The notes: generated by a model not told the origin, from the letters alone. A DNA stretch of 64,000 bases from an uncultured Bacilli bacterium (GCA_934177995.1 CAKPPW010000001.1:11378-75377), one strand, 5' to 3'. Numbered from the stretch's first letter, positions 5,045 to 37,346 are shown. Program-made: numbers and translations.

Positions 5045-5265
5045 GTAATTCTAGATTTCTGTGAAGAATGATAGTAGTTTAGAACGATTATTTTTAAGAG
5101 ACTTAGTGGTTGGTGAAAACTAAGATAATATTTTAGATGAAATACACATTTGGAGAAAGAATCGTGTTAGAGCGTTAATCTATTAAGAGCATAGTTTCTA
5201 TGAAATAAGGTGGTACCGCGGAAGAATCCGTCCTTATATTTGTAGAAACTTTTTATATTTTAAGG
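5045..5265 (+). promoter_or_regulatory. T-box riboswitch leader of tyrS
   Basis: Conserved T-box sequence AAGGTGGTACCGCGG at 5207-5221 followed by a terminator/T-run. Possible UAC specifier in 'gaaATACAca'. Confidence 0.7.
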
Positions 5266-5275
5266 AGGAATAAAA

Positions 5276-6508
5276 ATGACATTATATGAAGATTTAAAAT
5301 GGAGAGGTTTAATTAAAGATGTGACATCTCCAGAGTTAGAAGAAAAACTAAATAAAGGTGGAATGACTTTCTATATAGGAGCTGATCCAACGGCAGAAAG
5401 CCTTCATATTGGTCAATTTCCTACTTTCTTAGTTGCTGAAAGATTAAGAAGAGCAGGACATAAACCAATAATCTTAGTGGGAGGTGCTACAGGAAGAGTT
5501 GGAGATCCTAGAGGAACTGGAGAAAGAGAAAAAGCTGATATTAAAGTTATAGAGAGTAATTTTGTAAAGATTAAAAAACAAATGCAAAAATTATTTGGTG
5601 AAGACACATTAGTAGTTAATAACTATGATTGGTTTAAAGACTATAACTATATTGATTTTTTAAGAGATGTTGGAAAGTATGTAAATGTATCTTACATGAT
5701 TAATAAAGATTTAGTAAAAAGACAGATGGATATTGGTATTTCTTATGCTGAATTTTCTTATATGTTAATTCAAGGATATGATTTTAAATATATTCATGAT
5801 CATTATGGAGCTGATTTACAGTTTGGTGGATCTGATCAATGGGGTAACTTGACTACAGGAATAGAATTAATAAGAAAACTAAATAATGAAGAAGTTTATG
5901 CTTTTTCTGTACCACTTATTGTTGATTCTACTGGTAAGAAGTTAGGTAAGAGTTATGGAAATGCTTTATGGTTAGATGAAGAAAAGACTACTAGCTATGA
6001 AATGTATCAATATATACTAAACTTTGAAGATATAATGATGGAAGAATATCTTAAGAAATATACCTTCTTAAATAAAGAAGAGATAGAAGCTATTATGAAG
6101 GAACATAATGAAACACCAGAAAAACGAATTGCTCAGAAGAGATTGGCTTATGAGGTAATAACATATCTTCATGGAGAAGATGCCTATAAACAAGCTGTTA
6201 AGATAAGTGAATCATTATTTAGTGGTGATATAGCATCTTTAACTTCTAAAGAAATAGAACAAGCCTTTAAGGGAATAGAACAACAAGAAATAGATAAAGA
6301 ATATTTGTTAGTAGATTTATTAGTAGAAATGGGAATTTGTAAAAGTAAAAGAGAAGCTCGTGAATTTATTACTAATGGAAGTATTAGCATAAATGGTAAA
6401 AAAATAACAGATTTAGAATTTATGGTTACAAAAGAAGTTGCAATTGAAGATAAATATATTATAATTAGAAGAGGAAAGAAGAAGTACTTCATTATAGTAT
6501 TTAAGTAG
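5276..6508 (+). CDS. tyrS: tyrosine--tRNA ligase
   Basis: HIGH-like motif (AESLHIGQ), KMSKS-like motif (KKLGKS), C-terminal S4 domain. N-terminus resembles Bacillus TyrS. Confidence 0.9.
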   Translation: MTLYEDLKWRGLIKDVTSPELEEKLNKGGMTFYIGADPTAESLHIGQFPTFLVAERLRRAGHKPIILVGGATGRVGDPRGTGEREKADIKVIESNFVKIKKQMQKLFGEDTLVVNNYDWFKDYNYIDFLRDVGKYVNVSYMINKDLVKRQMDIGISYAEFSYMLIQGYDFKYIHDHYGADLQFGGSDQWGNLTTGIELIRKLNNEEVYAFSVPLIVDSTGKKLGKSYGNALWLDEEKTTSYEMYQYILNFEDIMMEEYLKKYTFLNKEEIEAIMKEHNETPEKRIAQKRLAYEVITYLHGEDAYKQAVKISESLFSGDIASLTSKEIEQAFKGIEQQEIDKEYLLVDLLVEMGICKSKREAREFITNGSISINGKKITDLEFMVTKEVAIEDKYIIIRRGKKKYFIIVFK

Positions 6509-16923: not shown

Positions 16924-17268
16924 ATGAATATAGAGCAAAAGAATCAATTAATAGAGCAGTACATTAACGAACTTGCTTTAAGTATTAATTCTAAATATAT
17001 AGGTTTAATAGATGATGAAAAGAAAAAAAGAGCAGTAGAAATGTTTAAAGATTCAAATGATGCCTTGAAATCAGAAATAATTCCTAAAATTAATGAAATT
17101 GCTAATCAAATGATAGAGAATTTTATTAAGTTTCAAAAACGGTTAGCAGAGTTTACAGGAAATGGGCAGCATAAAAATTTGGAAGGGGTGGCTTCTTTAC
17201 AACTAAATACTAGTGAAAATGGAAGCATGGGCACCATTTGGAGAAGGAAGAAATGGTTTATTTACTAA
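16924..17268 (+). CDS. hypothetical small protein (possibly a chimeric remnant)
   Basis: 114 aa with no known domain. Its 3' end overlaps, out of frame, the aldo-keto reductase fragment. Confidence 0.25.
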   Translation: MNIEQKNQLIEQYINELALSINSKYIGLIDDEKKKRAVEMFKDSNDALKSEIIPKINEIANQMIENFIKFQKRLAEFTGNGQHKNLEGVASLQLNTSENGSMGTIWRRKKWFIY

Positions 17269-17572
17269 TGAGGTATTAGTTAGTATTGGTAAAAAATATA
17301 ATAAGTCTTCCGCTCAAGTAATGCTTAGATGGCTAATCCAAAGAGGAGTTATTATCGCTTGTAAATCAACTTATATAGAAAGAATGAAAGAAAACTTTAA
17401 TGTATTTGATTTTGAACTATCAGAAGATGATATGCAAGAGATTAGTAAATTAGATACAAGTAATAGTTTGTTCTTTAATCATCAAGATCCTAAGATGGTT
17501 GAATGGTTTGATAATATTGTAAAATCAAGAAGAGAAAATGAAGACTGTCGTAATGACAAGAAAAACTGGTAA
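17213..17572 (+). pseudogene. aldo-keto reductase C-terminal fragment
   Basis: EAWAPFGEGRNGLF...SAQVMLRWLIQRGVIIACKS...FNVFDFELSEDDMQEISKLD matches the last ~110 aa of YtbE/YvgN-type AKRs. The N-terminal ~170 aa of the barrel are absent. Confidence 0.55.
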
Positions 17573-17583
17573 GGAGATTTATA

Positions 17584-18206
17584 ATGAAAAAAAGTATAAC
17601 TATAATCTTAGTAATATTATTAATTGTTATAATTGGAGCCAGTTCTTACTATGTCTTAAATGGAAATAATAAGACTAATCAAAATAGTGGTACATCTACT
17701 TCTGGTAATGATACCACCTCTTCTAATAAAAAAATTCTAGTAGTATATTATTCTGCTCAAAGTCATACTGAATCAGTTGCTAAAAAGATTGCAGGTAATT
17801 TAATGCTGATATTTTTGAAATAGTACCAAAAGATGTATATACATCAGATGATTTAGATTGGACAAATGCTAAATCAAGAGTATCAAGAGAACATGATGAC
17901 GAATCTTTAAGAAATGTTGAACTTGAAAGTACTGAAGTAGCTAATTGGGATAGTTATGATACTGTTTTAATTGGTTATCCTATATGGTGGGGAATAGCTG
18001 CTTGGCCAGTAAATACATTTGTTAAAGCTAATAACTTTGCTGGAAAGACAGTTATACCATTTTGTACATCAGCATCGTCTGATATCGGTAATAGTGGAAA
18101 ACTATTAGAGAAAGAGGCAGGTAGTGGTAATTGGCTTGAAGGTCAGAGATTCTCATCAAATCCAACGGATAAAGATATTAAAACATTTATAGGTATAAAT
18201 TATTAA
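17584..18206 (+). pseudogene. exported flavodoxin-family protein, interrupted by a -1 nt frameshift near 17800
   Basis: Frame A gives signal/TM + KKILVVYYSAQSHTESVAKKIAGNL then stops. Shifting +1 at 'aatttaATGctg' continues ADIFEIVPKDVY...LIGYPIWWGIAAWP...IPFCTSAS... to a stop at 18204-18206. Confidence 0.55.
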
Positions 18207-18388
18207 TTGCTAATATAAATATATTTTTGTTATTTATAGTGAGCATCAGTGTCAATTGTTAAAAATATGTTGCAAAATTTTTAAGAATAAGGATTATTTT
18301 TCACTACTAATAAGTTTAGTTTTTGTAGTAAATTATGGTATGATTAATGAGAAGGACTAGCAAACAATTAAAGAAAAGAGGATAATAT

Positions 18389-19711
18389 ATGCAGTTAGAA
18401 GATACCATTAAACAATTAATGATTGGTAAAAATTATGATGAAAAACTAATTGAGAATACTATAGAATTGTTACCGGAAATGATAAGTATTTTTGGCAAAG
18501 AAAAAACAGTCAAGTTTTTTGAAGAATATAATTTTGTACCAAGAAATAGAATAGGAAAGAACAGTGGTGCAACATATAAAGAAGAAAAGAAAATTGAATT
18601 TGATTGGTCTTGTAAAAGTAAACATGAAGCATTAAACTTGTTAATACATGAAGCTGGTCATGCAATTGGTTAATTAGAAACAGAAAAAAATCATTTTTTA
18701 ATGGAAGGGTATAAATATCGGGAGTCTTTCTTAAATAAAATAGAAGAGGCTGTAGTTAGTAAAAGACAAGATGAATTAGAATATGGTGATACGAATTATA
18801 CATATGTGACTATAAATAATAGAGAAAACGGGGAAGAGTTTCATCTTAATGATTTTAAAACTCAACCTTCAGGTAAATATACGATAAATAAAGTTTTTTA
18901 TCAAAACTTAATGATGATATTAGGTAAAAATAGATATTTAATTGATACATTAATGTATGCAGATAATATTGATAGCAAAAATGATATTTTAAATAGAATA
19001 ATAGAGATAACAGAAAATACCTTAAATGAAAAAGAATTAACTGCTCTTAAAGATTGTATTAACGTATTTACATTAAATTATTCATATCATGAAGATAAAA
19101 CAACTGTTGAAGACTATTTAAAAAATAAGAAAAAATTTGATGAACAACTTAGTGAGGAAGAATATAAAAATCTTTTAGTTGAAAATTTTCCTAAAAATAC
19201 AAAGTATGCAATAGAAAGGCATTTACTATCAAAAAATATATATGAATCAGTAGACGAATTGTGTGGAATTACCCTAGATGTTATTATAAGAAATTTTTCT
19301 GATAATGAACACAATGATTTTGATAACATAAAGGATACTTGTGAATACTTTTCTAAAATTTATAATACAAGTGACCAAAATTTTGAAAAAACAGAAATTC
19401 TTAAAGAATTATTTATAGAAAACGTAGTAAAAATTAATCCAACTATATACTATGATTTTATTGATGTATTTAGTAAAATTATAGCATCTAATGATTTTAA
19501 ACAAGAGTATTTAGATAAAATGATTTATGATAAAGAAAAAGAAATAATTTCTATTGATGAATTAAGCAATTTTGCTATTAACAAAGAACCAATATATTCT
19601 GATGATGTAATTGTATTTGGTGGTCAAGTGTTTGGAAATGTTAAACCAATAGGTTATGAATTAAAATTATCATCAGTTAATAAGTCTGATTTGCAAGAGA
19701 AAAAATACTAA
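18389..19711 (+). pseudogene. HExxH-motif protein interrupted by a single in-frame TAA (18671-18673)
   Basis: ORFs 18389-18673 and 18701-19711 share one frame (312 nt apart) and are separated by a single stop directly after ...LLIHEAGHAIG. Confidence 0.4.
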
Positions 19712-19783
19712 TATTGATAATTAATTATTATTTTGAAACAAATATATGTTTTATAATATAAATATATATAAGGAGTTAACAAA

Positions 19784-20101
19784 ATGAAAATTTTATCTGA
19801 AAAACTAATAGATGCTGGTTGTGGAAAAAAATATGATGAAGGATATAGAATTGTATATTTTGAAAAAGATAATAGGTATTCGCTTGGTGCTTATTGTAAA
19901 ACAATAGAAGGATTTATGATTGGCTTTGCTGATTGTAATCCAATTATTGATGAGGATGATATCCCTTCTTTTACTTCTGTAGATGATATTTTGAATAGGT
20001 CTTTAAATTTATGTGATGATGTCATTCGAGTATCAATTTACAAGACAGATGGAACGTTAATTGCTACAAAAGAAAGAAAAAATTTAAATAAATCTAAGTA
20101 A
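19784..20101 (+). CDS. hypothetical small protein
   Basis: 105 aa; no recognisable domain. Confidence 0.3.
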   Translation: MKILSEKLIDAGCGKKYDEGYRIVYFEKDNRYSLGAYCKTIEGFMIGFADCNPIIDEDDIPSFTSVDDILNRSLNLCDDVIRVSIYKTDGTLIATKERKNLNKSK

Positions 20102-20918: not shown

Positions 20919-21737
20919 ATGAATCAAATAAATGAATACAGTGAAACAATTTTTGAAAGGATTAAACATACTAATGAATATGATAAGGAATATTGGTATG
21001 CCAGAGAATTACAAGTAGCTCTACATTATAAGGAATGGAGAAAATTTTCTGGTGTTATAGAAAAAGCAAAAACTGCTTGTGACAATAGTGATATTAATAC
21101 ACATGACCATTTTGTCGGGGTCGACAAAATGGTAGATATAGGTTCTCGTGCACAGAGAAAACAAAATGATTATAAACTATCTAGATATGCTTGTTATTTA
21201 ATTGTTCAGAATGCTGATTCTAGAAAACAGGTAGTTGCTTCAGGACAAACATATTTTGCAGTGCAAACTAGAAAACAAGAGTTAACAGAAAAAGAATATG
21301 ATAATTTAACTGAAGATGAGAAAAGATTTTATCAAAGAGGTTTAACTAGAAGAGGTAATTATTCTTTAAATCAAACTGCTAAAAACTGTGGTGTTAAAAA
21401 CTTTGATAAATTTCATAATGCTGGATATAGGGGGTTGTATAATGGTGAAACTGCTGATGATATTGCTAAAAGAAAAAAATTAAGATATAGAGAAGATATT
21501 TTGGATAATATGGGCAGTGAAGAGTTAATAGCTAATCTTTTTAGAATTAGTCAGACAGAAGCAAAACTAAAAAAAGATAATATATCTAGTGAACGAGCAG
21601 CTAATGAAACACATTATAATATTGGAAAAAATATTAGAGAGGTTATTGCTAAAAATGGTGGAACTATGCCAGAAAAATTGCCAACTCCTAAGAGGTCATT
21701 AAAAGATTTAGAGAGAGATAAGAAGCAACTAAAATAA
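20919..21737 (+). CDS. DNA damage-inducible protein D (DinD) family protein
   Basis: N-terminal region (...EYWYARELQVALHYKEWRKFSGVIEKAKTACDNS...HFV...KMVDIGS) resembles E. coli DinD. A putative SOS box lies upstream. Confidence 0.5.
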   Translation: MNQINEYSETIFERIKHTNEYDKEYWYARELQVALHYKEWRKFSGVIEKAKTACDNSDINTHDHFVGVDKMVDIGSRAQRKQNDYKLSRYACYLIVQNADSRKQVVASGQTYFAVQTRKQELTEKEYDNLTEDEKRFYQRGLTRRGNYSLNQTAKNCGVKNFDKFHNAGYRGLYNGETADDIAKRKKLRYREDILDNMGSEELIANLFRISQTEAKLKKDNISSERAANETHYNIGKNIREVIAKNGGTMPEKLPTPKRSLKDLERDKKQLK

Positions 21738-21745
21738 AAAAGAAT

Positions 21746-22762
21746 CTATATTTTAGACTCTTCCTTAGTATATAATACTACATTTTGAAAATAGTATCCT
21801 AATATTTGTTTATAGTTACAATCAAGTTTAGCTAGAGCGTTTGCACCAACGATACTTAATCCATAACCATTACCAATTCCTCTAGTAATAAAAGTAAATC
21901 CTTGTTTTAAGACAAGAATAGTAATATCAGCAGAAGGTAAATCTAGTCTAGTCATTAAATCAAGTGAATTGAAAATCTTATCATTTACTTGTAATTTTAA
22001 AATTCTATTACTAGGACTTAACTGTTTAATTTCAATATTAATATTATTATCTTTGATATTTAATCTTTTTCTTAATTCTTCTACTGAAAAGTATTTTTGA
22101 TTCATATAATTAGGATATGCTAAGTCCCAAAGACTTTCTGTTTGTTTTAGATAAGGGATATTACTATTAGTCTCTGTATAACCATTACTTACTAAGTGAA
22201 TGTAGGCTTCTATTGGTTCTTTGTTATACACTAGATATTCTCCGTCAGTAGCTTTTATTACCTTTTTAAATAATGTCTCATACATCTTGTAAGTGTTTGG
22301 ATAAAGTAATTTGTAATAATTTAAATTAACATAAGAAAAGTGATGATTATCTTTAGATATCTTTTCCTTATTCTTATACTTTTTAATCAGTTCACTACGA
22401 TAGAGGATAGTTATAGCTTTTAAAGCTTCTTCTTCTAAGAAAATAGTAATGTTACTAAACAAGATGCTTAAAAGTAGTTTATCTAAAGATATTTTATCAT
22501 CGGTATCAAGAGTTAGAATAATATCTTTGTCAGACATAATTTTATCATTATCATTTAATAATACTACTTTAGTAGGAATACCATCTACAAAGATAACTAC
22601 TTTATTGCCATTAAATTGAATTCTTTGATTAATTAACCAATTTTTATCTAAATTGTCTAGATTGTAATCATCTAAATCTTTAGCAAATTCATAATTCATA
22701 GATAAGTATAAATATAAAACATCTTCATTCTTTTCCTTTACTACCTTGTATTTTTCTAGCAT
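21746..22762 (-). CDS. SpoIID/LytB-domain protein
   Basis: C-terminal half carries SNGYTETNSNIPYL and GNGYGLS motifs resembling the SpoIID family's SSGG.TE...PYL signature. Confidence 0.45.
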   Translation of the reverse strand: MLEKYKVVKEKNEDVLYLYLSMNYEFAKDLDDYNLDNLDKNWLINQRIQFNGNKVVIFVDGIPTKVVLLNDNDKIMSDKDIILTLDTDDKISLDKLLLSILFSNITIFLEEEALKAITILYRSELIKKYKNKEKISKDNHHFSYVNLNYYKLLYPNTYKMYETLFKKVIKATDGEYLVYNKEPIEAYIHLVSNGYTETNSNIPYLKQTESLWDLAYPNYMNQKYFSVEELRKRLNIKDNNINIEIKQLSPSNRILKLQVNDKIFNSLDLMTRLDLPSADITILVLKQGFTFITRGIGNGYGLSIVGANALAKLDCNYKQILGYYFQNVVLYTKEESKI

Positions 22763-22808
22763 TATATCACCTAGTAGATAGTATTTCTAAAAATTATCTA
22801 TTTATACT

Positions 22809-23789
22809 CTAAAATTCAAAATATTTTAATTCATAATCTTTGTCACAGTCTTTACCAGTTTTATAAGATAGATTTTTAAATACCTTGTTTAAGTCTACTT
22901 TCTTAGTATCTTTTATATAGTAGTTAACTTTCTTTATAATACTTAAAGCTTCTTCTAGTGCTTTATCATACAATTCGTCAAAACTATCTTCATGTTTTTT
23001 TCTTTTTAGACAAGGATGATTCCATTTAGTATGATCATTATTTAAATAATTTCTTTTATCTGTTAGAGATACATGATAAGAGATAGTTGAGAAGGGAAAC
23101 ATTGTCTTAGGTGTTATCTTTTCACAAACAGTATAAACACATTTTTTAATACCTGTTTTATCATATCTAAAATATTTAAGAGCGAAATGCATATCCTTTA
23201 AAGCTTGCTTGTAGAATTTACTCATTTCAGTTATACCAAATGTTTCTTTGAAGGCATAGTCAATTACTTCCTCAAGTTCTTTAGAAAAAAATGTAAAATC
23301 AAAACAAAAATCATAGAAAGGAAAAGAGTAAACCTTACCTTTTTCCCGTTTACTTATTAGATAATTATCAATAAATACCTCCATATTGTGATGTAATCCC
23401 TTATACTTATAAGTTTCTTTATCACCTTTTATAAATTCACCAGTCTTATAAAAAACATAAGGATGAATAGTACTATCTAAGACATAGTGGGAGATGAAAC
23501 CATAAAGATAGGCCATCACATCAGGAACTTGATAGTAATCATTATATCTTATATAGTTAACTAAATTTATAAAAAACTCCCTAGTTTTATTAGTGTGAAA
23601 ATAAAGAGCAAAGTCTTGTTGTTTCTTGCCATTTTTTAAAGAAATTTTATGATAAAAAAAGAAAGGGTCCATTCCTTGAGCGAACATTCTAATACTTTTT
23701 TTCTCATCCATTAATAATTCTTTTAGGCCAATAGGTAAATTGTTGTAAACGTCCATACCAAAATAAGCATGAGTAACTGTTGCCGGCAT
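22809..23789 (-). CDS. zinc-dependent phospholipase C-like family protein (hypothetical)
   Basis: N-terminus MPATVTHAYFGMDVY and several His are typical of proteins annotated as 'zinc dependent phospholipase C family' in Firmicutes. Confidence 0.35.
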   Translation of the reverse strand: MPATVTHAYFGMDVYNNLPIGLKELLMDEKKSIRMFAQGMDPFFFYHKISLKNGKKQQDFALYFHTNKTREFFINLVNYIRYNDYYQVPDVMAYLYGFISHYVLDSTIHPYVFYKTGEFIKGDKETYKYKGLHHNMEVFIDNYLISKREKGKVYSFPFYDFCFDFTFFSKELEEVIDYAFKETFGITEMSKFYKQALKDMHFALKYFRYDKTGIKKCVYTVCEKITPKTMFPFSTISYHVSLTDKRNYLNNDHTKWNHPCLKRKKHEDSFDELYDKALEEALSIIKKVNYYIKDTKKVDLNKVFKNLSYKTGKDCDKDYELKYFEF

Positions 23790-23890
23790 CTTTTACCACA
23801 TCCTTTACAAAAGTATATCATATATTTTCATCAAAAATTCATATTTTTTTAAGTAGTTATGTGGTATAATTACCCTAGGTAGGTGGAAAG

Positions 23891-24847
23891 ATGATAGAAA
23901 AACAGTTTAAAAACCTAGAAGAACAAATTGAAATAATGAAATATAAAGGACTTACTATCGATGATCCAGACTTTGCTAAGAGGGTATTACTTAGAGAAAA
24001 TTATTTCTTCTTAAATGGTTATCGTTATCCTTTGATGAAAAGTATGAAAGATAAAAGATTTTTAGAAGGGGCTACCTTTGAGGAATTATATAGTATCTTT
24101 TTGTTTGATCGTGGAATTAGAAATGTTTTCTTTAAGAATTTACTTATCATTGAAAATAATCTAAAATCAATTTTTTCCTATCAGTTATCTAAACGATATG
24201 GTTATAGAGAAAAAGATTATTTGAAAGCTAAGAATTTTACTCAAGATAAAACTAAATCAAGACAGGTTAATGATTTAATTCATAAGATGAAAAGGCAGAT
24301 AAGAGTTAATGGTAGAGAGCATACTGCTACTAGTCATTATATGATGAATTATGGTTATGTACCTTTGTGGATATTAGTAAAAGTTTTATCCTTTGGTATA
24401 GTTGGAGAATTATTTTCTATTTTAAAGTATGAAGATCAAAAGAAGATTTGTGATATCTATCATTTAAATGTTTCTACGATGCTAACTTATCTACCAATAT
24501 TATCTAACTATCGTAATTTATGTGCTCATGAAGATATCCTATATGAGAATAGAACACAAAAAGTCATACCTAATACCATTTATCATAAACTTTTAAATAT
24601 AGAAGAAGATGATGAAGGTTATGTTCAAGGTAAAAATGATGTCTTTGCATTAGTAATTATCATGAAAGATATGCTAAGTGAAGAAGAATTTAAAAATATG
24701 ATGTTAGAATTAGAAAGAGAGATAAATAATTTATCTTATAACCTACATACAATTAAAGTAGAGGATGTTTTAAAACGAATGGGCTTTCCTACTAACTTTG
24801 AACAAATTGAAAAAATTGAAAGGAGTTATGAATTAGATGAAAATTGA
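23891..24847 (+). CDS. Abi_2-family (AbiD/AbiF-like) abortive-infection protein
   Basis: N-terminus ...LEEQIEIMKYKGLTIDDPDFAKRVLLRENYFFLNGYRYPL... is the Abi_2 signature. Confidence 0.6.
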   Translation: MIEKQFKNLEEQIEIMKYKGLTIDDPDFAKRVLLRENYFFLNGYRYPLMKSMKDKRFLEGATFEELYSIFLFDRGIRNVFFKNLLIIENNLKSIFSYQLSKRYGYREKDYLKAKNFTQDKTKSRQVNDLIHKMKRQIRVNGREHTATSHYMMNYGYVPLWILVKVLSFGIVGELFSILKYEDQKKICDIYHLNVSTMLTYLPILSNYRNLCAHEDILYENRTQKVIPNTIYHKLLNIEEDDEGYVQGKNDVFALVIIMKDMLSEEEFKNMMLELEREINNLSYNLHTIKVEDVLKRMGFPTNFEQIEKIERSYELDEN

Positions 24848-25970
24848 TAAACTTAAAGATAGTATTTTAATAATAGTAGCTTTTATTTTAGGAGGAGTTT
24901 TAACTTATGTAGTAGTAAATGGTAACTTAACTACTTCTTCTAAAGGAACTACTAGTAGTGGAGGTGCTACTTGTAGTAGTAAAAACTGTACTAAAGTATT
25001 AGTAGATGGTTCAGGAATTAGTCAATCAGTATCTAAAGTATATGATGGTGTTGTTATTGTTAGAAATTATCAAAATAATGAATTAGCTGGATTTGGTACG
25101 GGTTTTGTCTATAAAGAAGATGATAAATATGATTATCTTATAACTAATCATCATGTAATTGATGGTAATAATAAAGTAACAGTAGTAACTAGTAAAGAAG
25201 AAGAGTTGGATGCTGAAGTATTAGGTAGTGATAGCTATGTTGATATTGCAGTAATTAGAATTAAAAAGAATAAAGATTTAACAGTATTATCTATTGGTAC
25301 TAGTGAAAATAGTAAACTAGGAGATTTAGTATTTACTATTGGTACACCTGTTAGTAATGAATATCAAGGTAGTGTTTCTACTGGTCATTTAGCCGGAAAA
25401 GATAGAATGGTAACTGTTAGTACAAGTAGTAATGGTTATGGAACTAGTTCTGGTGATTGGGTTATGAAAGTTTTGCAAACAGATGCTTCAATTAACCCAG
25501 GAAATAGTGGTGGACCACTTATGAATTCTAATGGAGAAGTAATTGGTGTTATTTCTATGAAATTAGTTAAAGAAGAAATAGAAGGTATGGGATTTGCTAT
25601 TCCAATTGAGTATGCTATGTCTAAGATTGAAACTCTAGAAAAAGGAGAAGAAATTAAATGGCCTCAATTAGGAGTACAAATGGTAAACGTATCTGATGTT
25701 AAACAATCTCGTTTTGGTAGCAATTATAATATTCCAAATGATGTTAAAACTGGAGTAGTAGTAGCAGGAATAGTAAGTGGTACTGGTGCTTCTAAATCAG
25801 ATTTAAAAGAAGGAGATATTATTACTAAACTTAATGGAGAAGAAGTAGAAAATGCGGCATATCTTCGTTATGAATTATATAAATATGCTCCAGGAGATAC
25901 AATTACACTTACTTACTTACGTGATGGTAAAGAACATGAAACTAAAGCAGTATTATCAAAAAGTGAATAA
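24837..25970 (+). CDS. htrA: HtrA/DegP-family serine protease with PDZ domain
   Basis: N-terminal TM. Catalytic-triad context HHVIDG, D..AVIRI and NPGNSGGPL, with a C-terminal PDZ. Start overlaps the Abi_2 stop by 11 nt. Confidence 0.8.
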   Translation: MKIDKLKDSILIIVAFILGGVLTYVVVNGNLTTSSKGTTSSGGATCSSKNCTKVLVDGSGISQSVSKVYDGVVIVRNYQNNELAGFGTGFVYKEDDKYDYLITNHHVIDGNNKVTVVTSKEEELDAEVLGSDSYVDIAVIRIKKNKDLTVLSIGTSENSKLGDLVFTIGTPVSNEYQGSVSTGHLAGKDRMVTVSTSSNGYGTSSGDWVMKVLQTDASINPGNSGGPLMNSNGEVIGVISMKLVKEEIEGMGFAIPIEYAMSKIETLEKGEEIKWPQLGVQMVNVSDVKQSRFGSNYNIPNDVKTGVVVAGIVSGTGASKSDLKEGDIITKLNGEEVENAAYLRYELYKYAPGDTITLTYLRDGKEHETKAVLSKSE

Positions 25971-25984
25971 GAGGAGAGGTTATT

Positions 25985-26725
25985 ATGAGAAAAGTTGTAC
26001 CTTTAGAAAAGCAAGTGGAAAGTGAAAAAAGTATAAAACTATTAGAAGATGCTTGTCAAAATGTAAACAATCATTTATCAGAGCTTGATGAAATTGATTA
26101 TCAAGATATTACTGAATTATGTCTTTATCTATTAACTGGTCATAGAAGAAAAGAAATAAACTCTAATATTTTTAAAATAATTTATCTATATATTAAAGAA
26201 AATATGGGACAGATGAATATTACATTTTCTAAAGATAATACTATCAGTAAAATAGAAATAGGGAAAATTAAGATGGGAAGTTTAGGCTTTAAAGATTTTT
26301 CTGAGGAAGAAAAGGAAAAAAGACTTGAGAAAAAAGTTAATTGTTGTGGAATTTATCCAACGATGGATAGAAAAGAAAGGATGTTTTTAACTTTAGAAGA
26401 TAAACTTATTATGGGAAATCAAGCAACTATCAAACAAACTGATTATAATAATATTTTTATAGGTCCATACTATTTTAATAGAGATACTATTTCCCCTGAT
26501 AGAGCCTCATTAACAAAATTAGAACTAATATCTGATAAATCTATTGAAGAAGATATATATGAATTTGATGACTCTGGTGAAAAAGAACTATATCAAGGAA
26601 TTATATCACTAGAAAAACATAAAGATGGTGAGTATTTCATTAAATCTTCAATAGATAGAAAGGAACTTTTTGCAAATAAGTATGGAATAAGACCTTCTAA
26701 TACCTCTTCACTTAGAGTAAAGTAA
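25985..26725 (+). CDS. hypothetical protein
   Basis: 246 aa lying 14 nt downstream of htrA; no domain recognised. Confidence 0.35.
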   Translation: MRKVVPLEKQVESEKSIKLLEDACQNVNNHLSELDEIDYQDITELCLYLLTGHRRKEINSNIFKIIYLYIKENMGQMNITFSKDNTISKIEIGKIKMGSLGFKDFSEEEKEKRLEKKVNCCGIYPTMDRKERMFLTLEDKLIMGNQATIKQTDYNNIFIGPYYFNRDTISPDRASLTKLELISDKSIEEDIYEFDDSGEKELYQGIISLEKHKDGEYFIKSSIDRKELFANKYGIRPSNTSSLRVK

Positions 26726-26730
26726 AAGAA

Positions 26731-28683
26731 CTACTTGATTGGTAGCTCTTTTCTTTTGGCGTTAAAACATCCTATATTGTTATCTTTTAGAGATTGATAT
26801 TTATTTAATAGTTGTTTTTCATCTTTAGCTACTATTTCCAAAGAAGAACCTCCTAATAAATACTTTTGTAAACTAGCTTGCTTTAAATCACTTATAGGAA
26901 GAGTAATACCTTCTGAATATTTATCCTTGTTAGTAACATCTTTTATTTTACCAAATATAGCAGCATCTTGCTTTTTAAACTCTGTTTCTATGTTGTTATC
27001 ATTATAAGTAGTTAAAACAAAGTTCAGATTATTTTGTTCACTATAATTGTCTATCTTTTTTTGCATGAACTTTAAAATATCTTTAGCAAGATTGTAAGTT
27101 ATTTCTTCATCCTTATTTCCTGTTAAAGTATAAATTGCTTCTGATAGACCAACTATATGAAAAGCTAGGGTACCATGCTTTAATAATTTTCTTAATCTAT
27201 CCTTATCCTTTAACTTTTCTCCATCGTGCCAAGTACCTAACTGATATAAAGTTGGAAAGTGGAGAATAGTTTTATCTACTTGTAGCTCAAATCTCTCCAA
27301 AAGGGCATCTTTGGCTTGTTTCAATACTTTTTCTAGTTCTTGATAGAATAATCTATAATCAGTTTCTTTTGTCTTTATATTCATACTTTTAAGGGCTATT
27401 CTAACTAGATTAATAGATATACAAGATATATTACCTTTACCACCAATAATTTTTTTATCAATAGTAGTATTATCTTCTATAACCCTTAGAGAATTGTAAC
27501 CATAATTAACATTTTCTTTAATAGCTTTATTAAAAGAAGCATCTTTATTAATAAAATATAGATTAGAGTAGTTAAGCATAGTAGTAGCAATCTCTTCAGT
27601 CATTTCTCCTTGATAGTAATATTCTATATATTTATTATTTACTAGTGATTTTATTATTAAATCCTTAGTAGAATTATTAGTTCCAAAATTTATTGCTAAG
27701 GGAAAAGATATAGTCTTAAAGAAATTTTTTAAAGAAATGGTAAAGTTTTTCTCACACTTTAGTTTAGCTTTCTTAATAATGGTAGAAAATGCTAAATATA
27801 AAGGTGTATCATTATCTATGGCAAAGTAGGCAGGGGTTATATCAAATGATGTTATGTTATCAATACCTGTTATAGTTAGATAATTAGCTAAATAATTAGC
27901 ATCTAAATATATATCAATATATTCCTTTAAGATTGATTTAAATTCTTTAAGTATGACATTTTCTAAGACTAAGTCAAAATTAATTAATGAGATACTTTGA
28001 TATACTTCTTTACTAAGACTATCTAGATATAATTTGATTCTATTTAGATAGGTATTAATTTTGTCTATAGAATTTAACTCTTTGGCAAAATCAGTATCAA
28101 GGCTAGCAAGTTCAATAAGGTCTACATCACAGGTTGCTATCATACCAAATGGTATAGTTTCTATTGAATGAAGATTAAATATTCCAGCATCTTGGCATCT
28201 TACTGTTTTAGTATCTAGTAAATAAGCTTTAGCAAACTCTGATGAGATAGTTTCTCCAAACTGTAATAGAAATGAATTAGGACGTTCCTTTAAGTTGTCA
28301 TCAATATTATCTAGACCAAGTCTTTCAATAGCTTTTAAAAACTTATGTTGTTGTTTCATAACAAAAGCAGATCTTGAAGCATTTCTATGTTCTCTATAGG
28401 TAGAAAAGGCAAGATAAACATCTTCAAAGTTATTCTCTTTTAACACCTCTTCAATTAAATCTTGAATATTTTCAATATTTATTGTTTTTCTATCTTTATA
28501 TTCTTTCTCTATCTTCTTAAGTACCTTAGAATATACTTTATTAACATCTTCATCTTTATAGGGTATATCTAGTGAATGGAAAGCTTTTTGAATAGCAAGA
28601 GCTATTTTTTCACCTTGAAAACTAGTTCTTTGACCACTTCTTTTGACAACTGTTAATGTGTCAAATGTTGACATATTTATCAT
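26731..28683 (-). CDS. ATP-cone protein, divergent NrdD-like paralog lacking the glycyl-radical/Zn-ribbon tail
   Basis: N-terminus LTVVKRSGQRTSFQGEKIALAIQKA is an ATP-cone. Internal ATCDVDL aligns with NCCLCDVGA of the adjacent NrdD. The C-terminal region aligns with NrdD (F..K....I.G..D..Y.S.....LP.S....Q....K...GG....I). The protein ends without a CxxC...CxxC Zn-ribbon or RxxGY motif. Confidence 0.45.
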   Translation of the reverse strand: MINMSTFDTLTVVKRSGQRTSFQGEKIALAIQKAFHSLDIPYKDEDVNKVYSKVLKKIEKEYKDRKTINIENIQDLIEEVLKENNFEDVYLAFSTYREHRNASRSAFVMKQQHKFLKAIERLGLDNIDDNLKERPNSFLLQFGETISSEFAKAYLLDTKTVRCQDAGIFNLHSIETIPFGMIATCDVDLIELASLDTDFAKELNSIDKINTYLNRIKLYLDSLSKEVYQSISLINFDLVLENVILKEFKSILKEYIDIYLDANYLANYLTITGIDNITSFDITPAYFAIDNDTPLYLAFSTIIKKAKLKCEKNFTISLKNFFKTISFPLAINFGTNNSTKDLIIKSLVNNKYIEYYYQGEMTEEIATTMLNYSNLYFINKDASFNKAIKENVNYGYNSLRVIEDNTTIDKKIIGGKGNISCISINLVRIALKSMNIKTKETDYRLFYQELEKVLKQAKDALLERFELQVDKTILHFPTLYQLGTWHDGEKLKDKDRLRKLLKHGTLAFHIVGLSEAIYTLTGNKDEEITYNLAKDILKFMQKKIDNYSEQNNLNFVLTTYNDNNIETEFKKQDAAIFGKIKDVTNKDKYSEGITLPISDLKQASLQKYLLGGSSLEIVAKDEKQLLNKYQSLKDNNIGCFNAKRKELPIK

Positions 28684-28991: not shown

Positions 28992-31178
28992 ATGGCAAAA
29001 GTAAAAGAGGTAAAAAAAGAGAGAAAGGAAAAAAAGAATAGATATAAAAATCCACCTATTAATATTATAAAAAAGAATGGCACTAAGCAACCATTTGATG
29101 GTGAAAAAATAAGAAGTGCAATTGAAAAAAGTGCTGAGAGAGTAATGGTTGATTTAACTGATGAAGCAAAAGATGAAGTTGTTAATATTGTAATTGATTT
29201 ATTAAAAAATCAAACTAGTGATGCTGAAGTTAGTCAAATTCATAATTGTGTAGAAGCAGCACTAGAACAAGTTAATCCTTTAGTAGCTAAAAGCTATAGA
29301 GAGTATCGTAACTATAAGAATGATTTTGTACATATCTTAGATAAAGTTTATAAAAAAGCTCAAGCAATTAATTATATTGGAGATAAAGAAAACTCTAATA
29401 CTGATAGTGCTTTAGTATCTACCCAAAGAAGTTTAGTATATGGTAACTTAAATAAAGAACTATATAAGAAATTCTTCTTAACAAAAGCTGAGATAGAAGC
29501 TTGTGAAGATGGCTATATTTATGTTCATGATATGAGTGCTAGACGTGATACTATGAACTGTTGTTTATGTGATGTTGGAGCCGTCATGAGAGATGGTTTT
29601 GAAATGGGTAATTTATGGTACAATGAACCAAAGAGCCTTGATACTGCCTATGATGTTATGGGAGATGTAATTATCAATACAGCAGCTATGCAATATGGTG
29701 GTTTTACAGTACCAGAAGTTGATACTATTTTAACTCCATATGCTAAGAAAAGTTATAATAAGTATTATGATGAATATATGGAAATAACTAATAATGAAGA
29801 TCCAGAAAAAGCTGAAGAATATGCTTGGAAAAAGACAAGACGTGAATGTGAACAAGGTTATCAAGGAATTGAATATAAATTAAATAGTGTTGGTTCTTCT
29901 CGTGGTGATTATCCATTTGTAACTTTTACTTTTGGACATGAAGAAGATAGATTTGGACAAATGATTAGTGAAGTTATTTTAAAAACTCATCAAAAAGGAC
30001 AAGGGAAACCAGGATATAGAAAGCCAACTTTATTTCCAAAATTAGTATTCTTATATGATAAAAATCTTCATGGTGAGGGTGGCAAGATGCATTATCTATT
30101 TGAAGATGCTCTAGATTGTAGTAGTAAGACAATGTATCCTGATTACTTATCATTAACAGGGGAAGGATACGTTCCTTCAATGTTTAAGAAATATGGAAAA
30201 ATTGTTAGTCCGATGGGATGTCGTGCTTTCTTATCACCTTGGTTTGAAAGAGGGGGAATGGAACCAGCTGATGAAAACGATCAACCAATCTTTATTGGAA
30301 GATTTAATATTGGAGCTATTTCTTTAAATTTACCAATGATTTTAGCTAAGTCTAGGGAAGAACAAAAAGATTTCTATGAAGTACTTGATTATTATCTAGA
30401 AATGATTCGTAAGATTCATATTCGTACTTATAACTATCTAGCTAAGAAGAAAGCATCTACTAATCCACTTGCTTACTGTGAAGGAGGATTCTATGGAGGT
30501 AGATTAAAACCAAATGAGCCTATTGAACCAATTTTAAAATCATCTACTGCTTCTTTTGGAGTAACAGCTTTAAATGAATTACAAGAGTTATATAATGGTA
30601 AAAGTCTAGTAGAAGATGGTGAATTTGCTCTTGAAGTTATGAGATATATTAATGATAAGACGCAAGAGTTTAAAAAAGAAGATGGAATTTTATATGCTAT
30701 TTATGGAACACCAGCTGAAAGTTTATGTGGTACACAAGTTGAACAATTTAGAAAGAAATATGGTATTATTAAAGGAGTATCTGATAGAGAATATGTTTCT
30801 AATAGTTTCCACTGTGGTGTGTGGGAAGATATTACTGGTATACAAAAACAAGATTTAGAAGGAAGATTCTGGGAACTATTTAAGGGTGGACGTATTCAGT
30901 ATGTTCGTTATAACTTAAACTATAATAGAAAAGCGATGGAAACTTATGTTGAAAGAGCTATGGATAAAGGTTTCTATGAAGGAGTTAACTTATCACTTTC
31001 TTACTGTAATGTTTGTGGCCATGAGGAATTAGATATGGATACCTGTCCAAAATGTGGAAGTGATGACCTTACAAAGATTGATCGTATGAATGGATATTTA
31101 TCTTATTCAAGAGTACATGGTGATACGAGACTTAATCATGCTAAGATGGTAGAAATTTCAGAAAGGAAGAGTATGTAG
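28992..31178 (+). CDS. nrdD: anaerobic ribonucleoside-triphosphate reductase (class III RNR)
   Basis: ATP-cone N-terminus, C-terminal Zn ribbon CNVCG...CPKCG and glycyl-radical motif RMNGYLSY. Confidence 0.85.
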   Translation: MAKVKEVKKERKEKKNRYKNPPINIIKKNGTKQPFDGEKIRSAIEKSAERVMVDLTDEAKDEVVNIVIDLLKNQTSDAEVSQIHNCVEAALEQVNPLVAKSYREYRNYKNDFVHILDKVYKKAQAINYIGDKENSNTDSALVSTQRSLVYGNLNKELYKKFFLTKAEIEACEDGYIYVHDMSARRDTMNCCLCDVGAVMRDGFEMGNLWYNEPKSLDTAYDVMGDVIINTAAMQYGGFTVPEVDTILTPYAKKSYNKYYDEYMEITNNEDPEKAEEYAWKKTRRECEQGYQGIEYKLNSVGSSRGDYPFVTFTFGHEEDRFGQMISEVILKTHQKGQGKPGYRKPTLFPKLVFLYDKNLHGEGGKMHYLFEDALDCSSKTMYPDYLSLTGEGYVPSMFKKYGKIVSPMGCRAFLSPWFERGGMEPADENDQPIFIGRFNIGAISLNLPMILAKSREEQKDFYEVLDYYLEMIRKIHIRTYNYLAKKKASTNPLAYCEGGFYGGRLKPNEPIEPILKSSTASFGVTALNELQELYNGKSLVEDGEFALEVMRYINDKTQEFKKEDGILYAIYGTPAESLCGTQVEQFRKKYGIIKGVSDREYVSNSFHCGVWEDITGIQKQDLEGRFWELFKGGRIQYVRYNLNYNRKAMETYVERAMDKGFYEGVNLSLSYCNVCGHEELDMDTCPKCGSDDLTKIDRMNGYLSYSRVHGDTRLNHAKMVEISERKSM

Positions 31179-31751
31179 ATGAAATATCATAATGTAACAA
31201 AAGCTGATATGTTAAATGGTGAAGGATTACGTGTTGTATTATGGGTAAGTGGTTGTTCTCATAAATGTCCAGGCTGCCAAAATACTATTACGTGGAATCC
31301 TGATGATGGTGTTAATTTTGATGATGATACAATAAAAGAGATTTATCATGAGCTTGACCAAGATTGGTGTAGTGGACTAACTTTATCAGGAGGAGATCCA
31401 CTCTTTCTTGGTAATAGAAAAACAATTAGAGATTTAGTCATGAATGTTAAACAGTTATACAAAGATAAGACCATTTGGTGCTATACTGGATATACTTGGG
31501 AAGAATTAATCGCTCAAAGAGAAGTTGATAAAAATCTAGATGATATTTTAAATTGTATTGATGTCTTATTAGAAGGTAAATTTGTTATGAAACTTCATGA
31601 TGATAGATTACATTATGTAGGTAGTAGTAACCAACGTATAATTGATGTTAAGAAAAGTGTAGAAGAAGGAAGAGTCGTTTTATATATAGATAATAGCAAT
31701 ATAGGCGATAGTGATAAAGCAGCTGTAGTACAGTGTGCAGTAAATAGTTAG
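31179..31751 (+). CDS. nrdG: anaerobic RNR activating protein (radical SAM)
   Basis: GCSHKCPGCQN radical-SAM CxxxCxxC cluster. Start abuts the nrdD stop. Confidence 0.8.
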   Translation: MKYHNVTKADMLNGEGLRVVLWVSGCSHKCPGCQNTITWNPDDGVNFDDDTIKEIYHELDQDWCSGLTLSGGDPLFLGNRKTIRDLVMNVKQLYKDKTIWCYTGYTWEELIAQREVDKNLDDILNCIDVLLEGKFVMKLHDDRLHYVGSSNQRIIDVKKSVEEGRVVLYIDNSNIGDSDKAAVVQCAVNS

Positions 31752-36659: not shown

Positions 36660-37007
36660 TTGGTGATAAATATGTATCAAAACAAAATTACACTTACACC
36701 ACAAGAAATCTTAGAGAAAGATTTTAAGATTGATACTCGTGGATACAGATTAAAAGAAGTTGATGAATTCTTAGATATGATAATTTCTGATTATGAACAG
36801 TTTTATAAAATAATCGAAAGTATGGAAAAAGAAAAAACTGAATTATTAAAAGAAATTATGTCCTTAAAACAAGAATTAAGAAATGTTTCAATGGATGCTG
36901 AAATAGCAAAAAATTCTAAATCAGATACAATGGAAATCACTAATTTGGATATTTTAAGAAGACTTAGCAATTTAGAAAAAGCAGTATTTGGTAAAGACAG
37001 CGAATAA
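36660..37007 (+). CDS. gpsB: cell-cycle protein GpsB (DivIVA-domain)
   Basis: TPQEILEKDFKIDTRGYRLKEVDEFLDMIISDYEQ is the DivIVA/GpsB N-domain. Conserved position next to rnpB. Confidence 0.8.
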   Translation: MVINMYQNKITLTPQEILEKDFKIDTRGYRLKEVDEFLDMIISDYEQFYKIIESMEKEKTELLKEIMSLKQELRNVSMDAEIAKNSKSDTMEITNLDILRRLSNLEKAVFGKDSE

Positions 37008-37346
37008 TACTTGGGCAAGTGCTAGGGTAACCTAGAGGAAAGTCCATGCTCGCACTATCTGTGATGATAGTAGTGTTCGTGCTTAGGGAAAAAATAACCT
37101 AAGGTAGATTTATTCTAACGGCAAAACTTTATCTAAAGGATTAATCCCATGATGAAGTGATAACGTGCCACAGAAACGATACTTTTGGAAACGAAAGGGT
37201 GAAACGAGGTAAACCCCACGAGCGAGAAACCCAAATTTTGGTAGGGGAGTCTCCATGAAAGAAAGATAATGGATTGGAGGACTAGTAATAGTAGATAGAT
37301 ACTTGCCACCTAGTAGTAGGTACAAAACATGGCTTATAAAGTATTA
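37005..37346 (+). ncRNA. rnpB: RNase P RNA, type B (Bacillus-like)
   Basis: GAGGAAAGTCCATGCTCGCAC, AGTGTTCGTGC, GTGCCACAG, GGTAAACCCC, CGAGCGAGAAACCCAAATTTTGGTAGGGGA and ACAAAACATGGCTTA all match B. subtilis rnpB. P1 pairing aatactt/aagtatt defines the ends. Confidence 0.9.

Follow-up and report, generated by a model that had tools for sequence, protein, structure and literature searches.

In a 64,000-nucleotide (nt) stretch of the genome of an uncultured Bacilli bacterium (GCA_934177995.1, CAKPPW010000001.1:11378-75377; this whole stretch is called the window, and positions are counted from its first letter), a gene of the Abi_2 (AbiD/F-like) family lies directly in front of a gene for a membrane-anchored HtrA-family serine protease and overlaps with it. 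Comparison of the locus between genomes indicates that the Abi_2-htrA pair is ancient and lineage-wide in uncultured gut Bacilli. Our favoured explanation, to which we give a probability of roughly 45%, is that the two genes form an ancient, vertically inherited bicistronic operon, in which a domesticated AbiD/F ribonuclease (RNase) is co-expressed with HtrA and induced by stress. Proteins of the Abi_2/AbiD/AbiF group are regarded as mobile toxins of phage defence and as the group from which Cas13 evolved. The Abi_2 gene of the window would be a domesticated RNase gene and not a strain-variable phage-defence gene.

Conservation of the Abi_2-htrA pair

Abi_2 (318 amino acids (aa); 23891-24847, plus strand, stop codon TGA at 24845-24847) and HtrA (377 aa; 24837-25970, plus strand) are encoded by open reading frames (ORFs) that overlap by 11 nt (24837-24847). 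A 246-aa orphan protein is encoded on the same strand (25985-26725) after a gap of 14 nt (25971-25984). All of these coordinates, strands and distances reproduce those of the original prediction for this locus. The Shine-Dalgarno sequence of htrA, AAGGAG (24820-24825), is inside the final Abi_2 codons Glu310-Arg311. Because the ribosome-binding site and the start codon of htrA lie within the end of Abi_2, htrA is predicted to be translated by coupling to Abi_2. This species is frequently found in public gut metagenomes, and the arrangement is identical throughout.

An alignment of Abi_2 was searched against one genome per GTDB species. Relatives were found in at least 532 species genomes, which are metagenome-assembled genomes of uncultured organisms, and the best 80 loci were inspected (contigs and loci outside the window are given by L numbers). 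The htrA genes of the relatives were identified by tblastn, and their start codons were picked by a ribosome-binding-site heuristic. The downstream gene could be assessed in 79 loci, since contig L048 stops within Abi_2. In this comparison of relatives, which the original prediction had called for, htrA is directly behind Abi_2 in 78 of the 79. The overlap is 1-26 nt in 75 of the 78 htrA-linked loci. AAAGGAG is found inside the 3' end of Abi_2 in nearly all of the 78, and Glu310-Arg311, which encode the htrA ribosome-binding site, are invariant in the alignment of Abi_2 relatives. Only one inspected species has no htrA behind Abi_2 (L050, 6001-7667; Abi_2 66% identical, RNLCAH motif intact). 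In this species a 217-aa membrane protein replaces htrA 57 nt after Abi_2, and the Glu-Arg codons of the htrA ribosome-binding site are lost from the Abi_2 C-terminus (E-T).

Sequence comparison separates the htrA-linked Abi_2 proteins as a discrete clade, with 58-100% identity among its members. The boundary of the clade was searched in a protein library clustered at 50% identity, where the clade appears as one full-length representative (P0136, 58% identity, 391 bits) and fragments. The next full-length Abi_2 matches beyond it reach at most 203 bits and 39% identity. In P0136, htrA again follows, with a 4-nt overlap, and the flanks differ from those of the window, with Amidase_3 upstream and UvrD downstream, so that the gene order in its loci (L088-L090) is Amidase_3, Abi_2, HtrA. 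Five outgroup Abi_2 proteins have 35-39% identity, and none of the four with readable flanks has htrA behind it. Two of the outgroup genes (L091 and L093) are directly after prophage endolysin or holin genes, and the spacers upstream of the outgroup genes are 270-430 nt long. The Abi_2 relatives of phages and plasmids are at most 31% identical. The gene order of P0136, together with the lysis-module position of the outgroups, hints that the clade arose by capture of an AbiF gene from a prophage lysis module.

Abi_2 is the best-conserved gene of the neighbourhood and is under stronger constraint than HtrA. The median identity to the window in other species is 67% for Abi_2 (64-77%), 51% for HtrA, 46% for the Zn_dep_PLPC-like protein encoded upstream and 34% for the SpoIID-like protein behind that. 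Among strains and sister species, the ratio of nonsynonymous to synonymous substitution rates (dN/dS) of Abi_2 is 0-0.04 at dS of 0.03-0.34. The Zn_dep_PLPC-like gene (22809-23789, minus strand; assigned by Pfam) keeps its divergent position immediately ahead of Abi_2 in most of the 79 other species (42-72% identity, 65 long matches). We claim no functional role for this syntenic neighbour, and its conservation marks the block as vertically inherited. The SpoIID-like gene (21746-22762) is retained in most loci too, with 59 long matches at 22-55% identity. All that comes after htrA is variable.

The locus is part of the core chromosome. The region has an even GC content, and the core genes of the window include nrdD/nrdG, recU, recA, a divIVA-like gene and those for dUTPase, a class A penicillin-binding protein (PBP1), RNase Y, RNase J and RNase P RNA. 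No integrase, transposase, repeats or defence genes were found flanking Abi_2. The setting is one of synteny in 78 of 79 species and not an accessory, mobile or defence-island context with patchy distribution.

The Abi_2 and HtrA proteins

The assignment of Abi_2 to the AbiD-AbiF family was upheld by profile, motif and fold. Abi_2 matches Pfam PF07751 well above threshold (E=5e-40, 138 bits, cut-off 25.6) and matches PADLOC AbiD (2e-56, residues 3-308) and PHROG 2158 (3e-66) over its full length. The sequence also matches PbAbiF (PDB 8vz6) at 2e-18. The R-[NHD]-x3-H motif of the family is present as R208-N-L-C-A-H213 (codons at 24512-24529) and is aligned with the RnsccH motif of PbAbiF, whose catalytic residues are R210/H215 (PMC12373285). 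RNLCAH is intact in all 80 Abi_2 copies. The AlphaFold2 (AF2) model of Abi_2 (predicted local distance difference test score (pLDDT) 87) has the AbiF fold. It matches 8vz6_A with E=4.6e-11 and template modelling (TM) scores of 0.75/0.79 over 315 columns, and 8vz6 is the only PDB match at E<=0.001. These results indicate that Abi_2 has the AbiD/F fold and is an HEPN protein whose Rx4H catalytic motif is intact.

We also considered an RNA or a promoter embedded in the Abi_2 gene and rejected it. A scan of synonymous-site conservation across 80 species gave only weak bumps at codons 91-101 and 164-173, and the RNA fold of the Abi_2/htrA junction was no better than that of shuffled sequence (z = +1.0).

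HtrA is of the typical Gram-positive kind and consists of an N-terminal hydrophobic anchor (ILIIVAFILGGVLTYVVV), which is predicted to be a transmembrane helix, a Ser/Thr/Gly linker, a trypsin-like domain (Trypsin_2, 1e-30) and one PDZ domain (PDZ_2, 9e-17). The original prediction had named it a membrane-anchored HtrA/PDZ protease. The catalytic motifs NHHV (104-107), DIAV (136-139) and GNSGGP (222-227) give the His-Asp-Ser triad, which together with the C-terminal PDZ domain is characteristic of the HtrA/DegP family. The serine motif G[NS]SGG is kept in every complete HtrA relative. The HtrA/DegP models of NCBIfam match at 1e-71 and 4e-70, with scores below the equivalog cut-offs (SerProtHtrA spr2045, 241 bits, cut-off 650; degP_htrA_DO, 237 bits, cut-off 416). 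The HtrA of the window is a member of the family and not an equivalog of a characterised HtrA.

The cytoplasmic N-terminal tails of HtrA are short, Lys-rich and variable among relatives. Docking of Abi_2 on HtrA was rejected on this ground. Direct activation of Abi_2 by HtrA is unlikely as well, because the protease domains are extracytoplasmic and the cytoplasmic tails are short and variable.

Promoter, proposed function and competing explanations

In 79 of the 80 loci, the spacer of about 100 nt in front of Abi_2 is organised in the same way. An extended -10 element (TGGTATAAT, 23862-23870, plus strand) was found by direct reading of the sequence, and its equivalent TRTGnTATAAT is at the same place in 79 of the 80 loci. 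The distance from the extended -10 to the start codon is 16-22 nt in 77 of 79 loci, mostly 17-18 nt, and the 5' untranslated region of Abi_2 is therefore predicted to be very short (about 10-15 nt). It holds the Shine-Dalgarno sequence AGGTGG (23881-23886, plus strand), kept as TAGGTGA in relatives. A second TATAAT-like hexamer is also present in the promoter region of relatives.

A direct repeat, TTCAT-N6-TTCATA (23827-23843, plus strand), lies over the -35 region of the operon promoter and is the sole match to this pattern in the window. In the -35 region, two TTTCAYA units stand 11 bp apart, at -38/-27, and the consensus of the repeat in 79 species is aatTTCAtaAAAaTTTCATAtTTTT. In 38 of 79 species, TTCAY-N6-TTCAY keeps a constant distance of -38/-37 to the -10 hexamer, against a shuffle mean of 0.09, a comparison that ignores the kinship among species and so overstates the significance. 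The CssR box of Bacillus subtilis is TTTTCACA (PMC6749698), and CssR boxes belong to the secretion-stress promoters of Bacillus (PMC6749698; PMC12826053). By its resemblance to the CssR box, the repeat is a putative operator for an OmpR/CssR-type response regulator. The TTTCAYA boxes resemble the CssR boxes of Bacillus htrA promoters, and the operon is therefore probably induced by envelope or secretion stress. A link to envelope stress was one of the ideas of the original prediction, and this part of it is plausible because the promoter carries such a repeat.

Terminators between the genes, which would speak against co-transcription, were not seen. The terminator scan gave no terminator-like site between 23891 and 26724, and promoter-like matches in the promoter scan were at chance level (55 versus 56 expected). 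The first terminator-like site is a hairpin at 26724-26752 (-14.5 kcal/mol, z = -2.05), followed by the U-run UUUUCUUUU. Lying between the operon and a convergent NrdD-like gene, it is probably an intrinsic terminator that acts in both directions.

The antitoxin RNA of AbiF systems was also searched. No match to the abiF RNA (Rfam RF03085) was obtained at the gathering threshold or, permissively, at E<=10 in 22700-27000, and the motif was not found in 10 relatives or in L088. In the positive control, the abiF locus of a Clostridioides difficile phage (L085), the RNA was detected at 1391-1426. An adjacent abiF RNA of the RF03085 type is thus not found at the locus, and an unrelated or trans-encoded RNA falls outside that search. 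Because the leader of Abi_2 is so short, there is no room in it for a cis-acting non-coding RNA. Two features of the described AbiF systems are therefore not found at the locus: the abiF RNA, and a context that is accessory or mobile.

In the operon that we favour, the single extended -10 promoter would drive Abi_2 and then htrA by translational coupling, and envelope or secretion stress would probably switch it on through the CssR-like boxes. A cytoplasmic RNase would be made together with an extracytoplasmic quality-control protease. The RNase may trim mRNA or tRNA, which would slow translation and lower the secretory load, and HtrA would clear misfolded envelope proteins. A further reading, which we regard as unlikely, is that an AbiF-type HEPN toxin has been turned into the cytoplasmic RNA arm of the envelope/secretion-stress response of this lineage, as a bacterial counterpart of the regulated RNA decay of Ire1 type. 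Abi_2 shares its mRNA with the signal-anchored HtrA, and its synthesis would therefore take place beside the translocon, on a transcript tethered to the membrane. Cleavage of mRNAs (or tRNAs) by Abi_2 at this site could lower the secretory load, with HtrA degrading exported proteins that have misfolded.

Several points weigh against the stress-induced RNase-protease operon. The survey was seeded with Abi_2 and is blind to how often the lineage carries htrA but no Abi_2. We infer the RNase activity, the substrate and the control of Abi_2 from homology alone. The short and variable tails of HtrA do not point to a physical association of Abi_2 with HtrA. The CssR-like box is a resemblance, its exact repeat occurs in only about half of the species, and no two-component system or cssRS genes are encoded in the window. 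The nearest outgroups are also without the Rfam abiF motif, so its absence from this locus is weak evidence and not distinctive in itself. Operon linkage in compact genomes can persist without shared function. Finally, in this family an HEPN RNase is toxic if its RNA antitoxin is not expressed with it (PMC12373285), and a constitutively encoded copy would need to be kept harmless.

A competing explanation, possible but doubtful, is a lineage-fixed abortive-infection system, in which the HEPN toxin is under the envelope-stress promoter of htrA, envelope damage from the adsorption, DNA injection or lysis proteins of a phage raises the toxin, and growth stops before progeny are released. Abi_2 is a full-length AbiD/F member with an intact catalytic motif, and family members are toxic and confer phage resistance (PMC12373285; PMC3710099). 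The nearest outgroups are in prophage lysis modules beside holin/endolysin genes, which is an envelope-related context, and the promoter carries a box like that of a stress regulator. Accessory genes also occupy the slot behind htrA, with an orphan containing two Rx4H motifs in six loci. However, defence genes are typically patchy, mobile and fast-evolving, whereas Abi_2 is syntenic in 78 of 79 species, has a dN/dS of at most 0.04 and is more conserved than the housekeeping protease. The RF03085 antitoxin RNA was not found, and no defence-island or mobile-element genes are around Abi_2. Rather unlikely, in our estimate, is that Abi_2 is a housekeeping RNA-processing enzyme unrelated to HtrA, which only shares the promoter and keeps the overlap since breaking it costs htrA expression. 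Strong purifying selection and the invariant motif would fit such an enzyme, as would L050, which keeps Abi_2 fully without htrA behind it, and the lack of a conserved cytoplasmic docking segment in the HtrA tails. The HEPN superfamily does contain housekeeping RNases, for example Swt1 in the Abi2/Swt1 group (PMC3710099). Yet the linkage by overlap is kept in 75 of 78 species despite reshuffling of the downstream and much of the upstream genes, which exceeds the expectation for neutral hitch-hiking, and the shared promoter is more akin to the stress promoters of htrA genes than to a housekeeping promoter.

The two arrangements suggested in the original prediction fared worse. A three-gene sensor-protease-effector cassette of Abi_2, HtrA and the 246-aa protein is very improbable, even though the 11-nt overlap and the 14-nt gap are real and no terminator-like site occurs before 26724. 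The 246-aa family is behind htrA in only 6 of 78 loci, where other loci have CorA, other orphans or a convergent gene, and the conserved unit is of two genes. Within the species, the 246-aa protein is 60-66% identical compared with 97-100% for Abi_2 and HtrA, which argues against co-evolution. The scheme is also topologically unlikely, because the catalytic domains of HtrA are outside the membrane whereas Abi_2 is cytoplasmic, and neither Abi_2 nor the 246-aa protein has a signal peptide. A genome with htrA and the 246-aa gene but no Abi_2, which would have pointed to mere insertion, was not seen in the survey, which was seeded with Abi_2; the usual state is Abi_2 and htrA without the 246-aa gene. 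Recent insertion of a mobile Abi gene upstream of a housekeeping htrA is the least credible of all. The family is usually mobile (PMC12373285), the nearest outgroups are borne by prophages, and an ancient capture from a lysis module is conceivable from the order Amidase_3, Abi_2, HtrA. As a recent event, insertion is refuted by orthologues of 58-97% identity that hold this position in at least 78 further species. The pair reaches as far as P0136 at 58% identity, the dN/dS of Abi_2 is at most 0.04, GC content is uniform, and no transposase, integrase or repeats flank the gene.

The closest known systems are the type III toxin-antitoxin-like AbiF/AbiD systems, such as PbAbiF (8vz6) and AbiFCd of C. 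difficile with its RNA RCd22. Abi_2 of the window shares with them the full-length fold, the R-phi-x3-H HEPN motif and the PADLOC AbiD and PHROG 2158 profiles. It differs by the missing RF03085 motif and a leader of about 15 nt, by its place in the core chromosome and not in a prophage, plasmid or defence island, by its fixation and synteny in 78 or more other species and its dN/dS of at most 0.04, and by its predicted translational coupling to htrA. Its identity to any phage, plasmid or other Abi_2 is at most 39%. Compared with the CssRS-controlled htrA/htrB genes of B. subtilis and other Gram-positive HtrA loci, the window likewise has a membrane-anchored HtrA with one PDZ domain and a promoter with tandem TTTCAYA units that resemble the CssR box. 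In contrast to those loci, this promoter drives an HEPN RNase gene first and would reach htrA only via coupling, and cssRS-like genes are absent from the window. Domesticated or housekeeping HEPN RNases (Swt1; the KEN domains of Ire1 and RNase L) use the HEPN domain for RNA surveillance or stress and not for conflict, as we propose here. The pairing of Abi_2 with protein-folding quality control recalls the logic of Ire1. In the window, no sensor domain is fused to the RNase, which is a protein distinct from the protease and located in another compartment. The likeness to Ire1 is a functional speculation, and homology is limited to the HEPN fold.

The coupling of an Abi_2 gene to an envelope protease had been called undescribed, and nothing relevant on Abi_2-type genes with HtrA was found in the literature searched. 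In a survey of the genes around Abi_2, defence and mobilome genes were reported, with only a vague signal of 'posttranslational modification' downstream (PMC12373285). A review of Gram-positive htrA loci names two-component systems, transporters and parB as neighbours and no Abi gene (PMC12826053). Neither of the two mentions the Abi_2-htrA arrangement (PMC12373285; PMC12826053). Annotation and defence-finder pipelines will label the window gene 'AbiD'. If the domestication is true, the locus would be a natural example of a domesticated HEPN toxin and would caution gut-microbiome surveys against scoring genes of this kind as defence systems. It would also suggest an RNA-level branch of the Gram-positive envelope-stress response and an AbiF-fold RNase controlled otherwise than by the known non-coding RNA. 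If Abi_2 is indeed the RNA arm of a stress response, a phage-defence toxin would have turned into a core stress gene, functioning with no RNA antitoxin of the known RF03085 type.

The slot behind htrA and other features of the region

The 246-aa protein belongs to no known family, as had been claimed. It had no match in Pfam, NCBIfam, PADLOC, PHROGs or PDB sequences, and its AF2 model (pLDDT 71) gave no PDB fold match by Foldseek (best E=0.15). The family comprises 15 homologue clusters among 5.8 billion proteins. Compared with contigs of the same species (L003, L004, L005), the gene has 61-81% nucleotide identity while the flanks have 92-100%. The drop of identity falls exactly within 25985-26725, with sharp boundaries at the gene ends. 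The dS of the gene is 0.86-0.89 versus 0.08-0.35 in the flanks, and its dN/dS is 0.25-0.30. These results indicate old and divergent alleles at a single locus. The hypervariability could reflect balanced polymorphism or imported alleles. The gene is probably co-transcribed with Abi_2 and htrA in this genome, and it is a lineage-restricted, variable passenger in an accessory slot, outside the conserved unit.

In other species the slot behind htrA holds CorA, other orphans, a zinc-ribbon membrane protein or a convergent gene. In six species (L012 8018-9751, L034, L047, L055, L073 and L081) an orphan of 570-591 aa stands behind htrA, directly or after CorA. It has two RNxxAHG motifs (Rx4H, HEPN-like), one near each end, a layout reminiscent of Cas13-like proteins, and had no Pfam, PADLOC or PDB match. 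In L041, L049 and L059, a protein of 454-470 aa is directly after htrA (gaps of -8 to +10 nt). It has N-terminal double zinc ribbons and C-terminal transmembrane helices, and gave weak matches to the PADLOC candidates PDC-S64 and HEC-08.

HEPN-superfamily RNases can cut tRNAs. Two unrelated Abi_2 genes have a tRNA gene ahead of them, at a distance of about 150 nt in Enterococcus phage IME197 (L086, 1270-1343) and of about 1.3 kb in an outgroup contig (L087, 2662-2743). These tRNA genes may be relevant in view of the tRNA cutting.

The convergent gene downstream of the operon encodes the NrdD-like paralogue (26731-28683, minus strand; 650 aa). It has an ATP-cone and scores far below all NrdD cut-offs, and by our reading of the sequence its C-terminus does not have the ...NGY... 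ending of glycyl-radical type seen in the genuine NrdD encoded beside it (28992-31178; NrdG comes after that at 31179-31751). The paralogue is kept in the closest genera at 45-53% identity. On the upstream side, the DinD/Bro-N gene (20919-21737) is 88-92% identical in contigs whose neighbouring genes are 97-99% identical. In one strain (L003, 1537-3352) it is truncated and followed by an IS605 OrfB/TnpB (Cas12f-like) gene. The region upstream of the Amidase_3 gene (16924-20101) also varies between strains. In the window it contains only a C-terminal fragment of an aldo/keto reductase (17213-17572) and then unknown ORFs, and the strain compared (L002, 42-2222) has at the same place TetR, a full aldo/keto reductase and two flavodoxin-like genes. 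Elsewhere in the window, a T-box leader (5052-5238) precedes an ORF at 5276-6508, and a class B RNase P RNA (37007-37341) comes directly after an ORF with a DivIVA domain (36660-37007).

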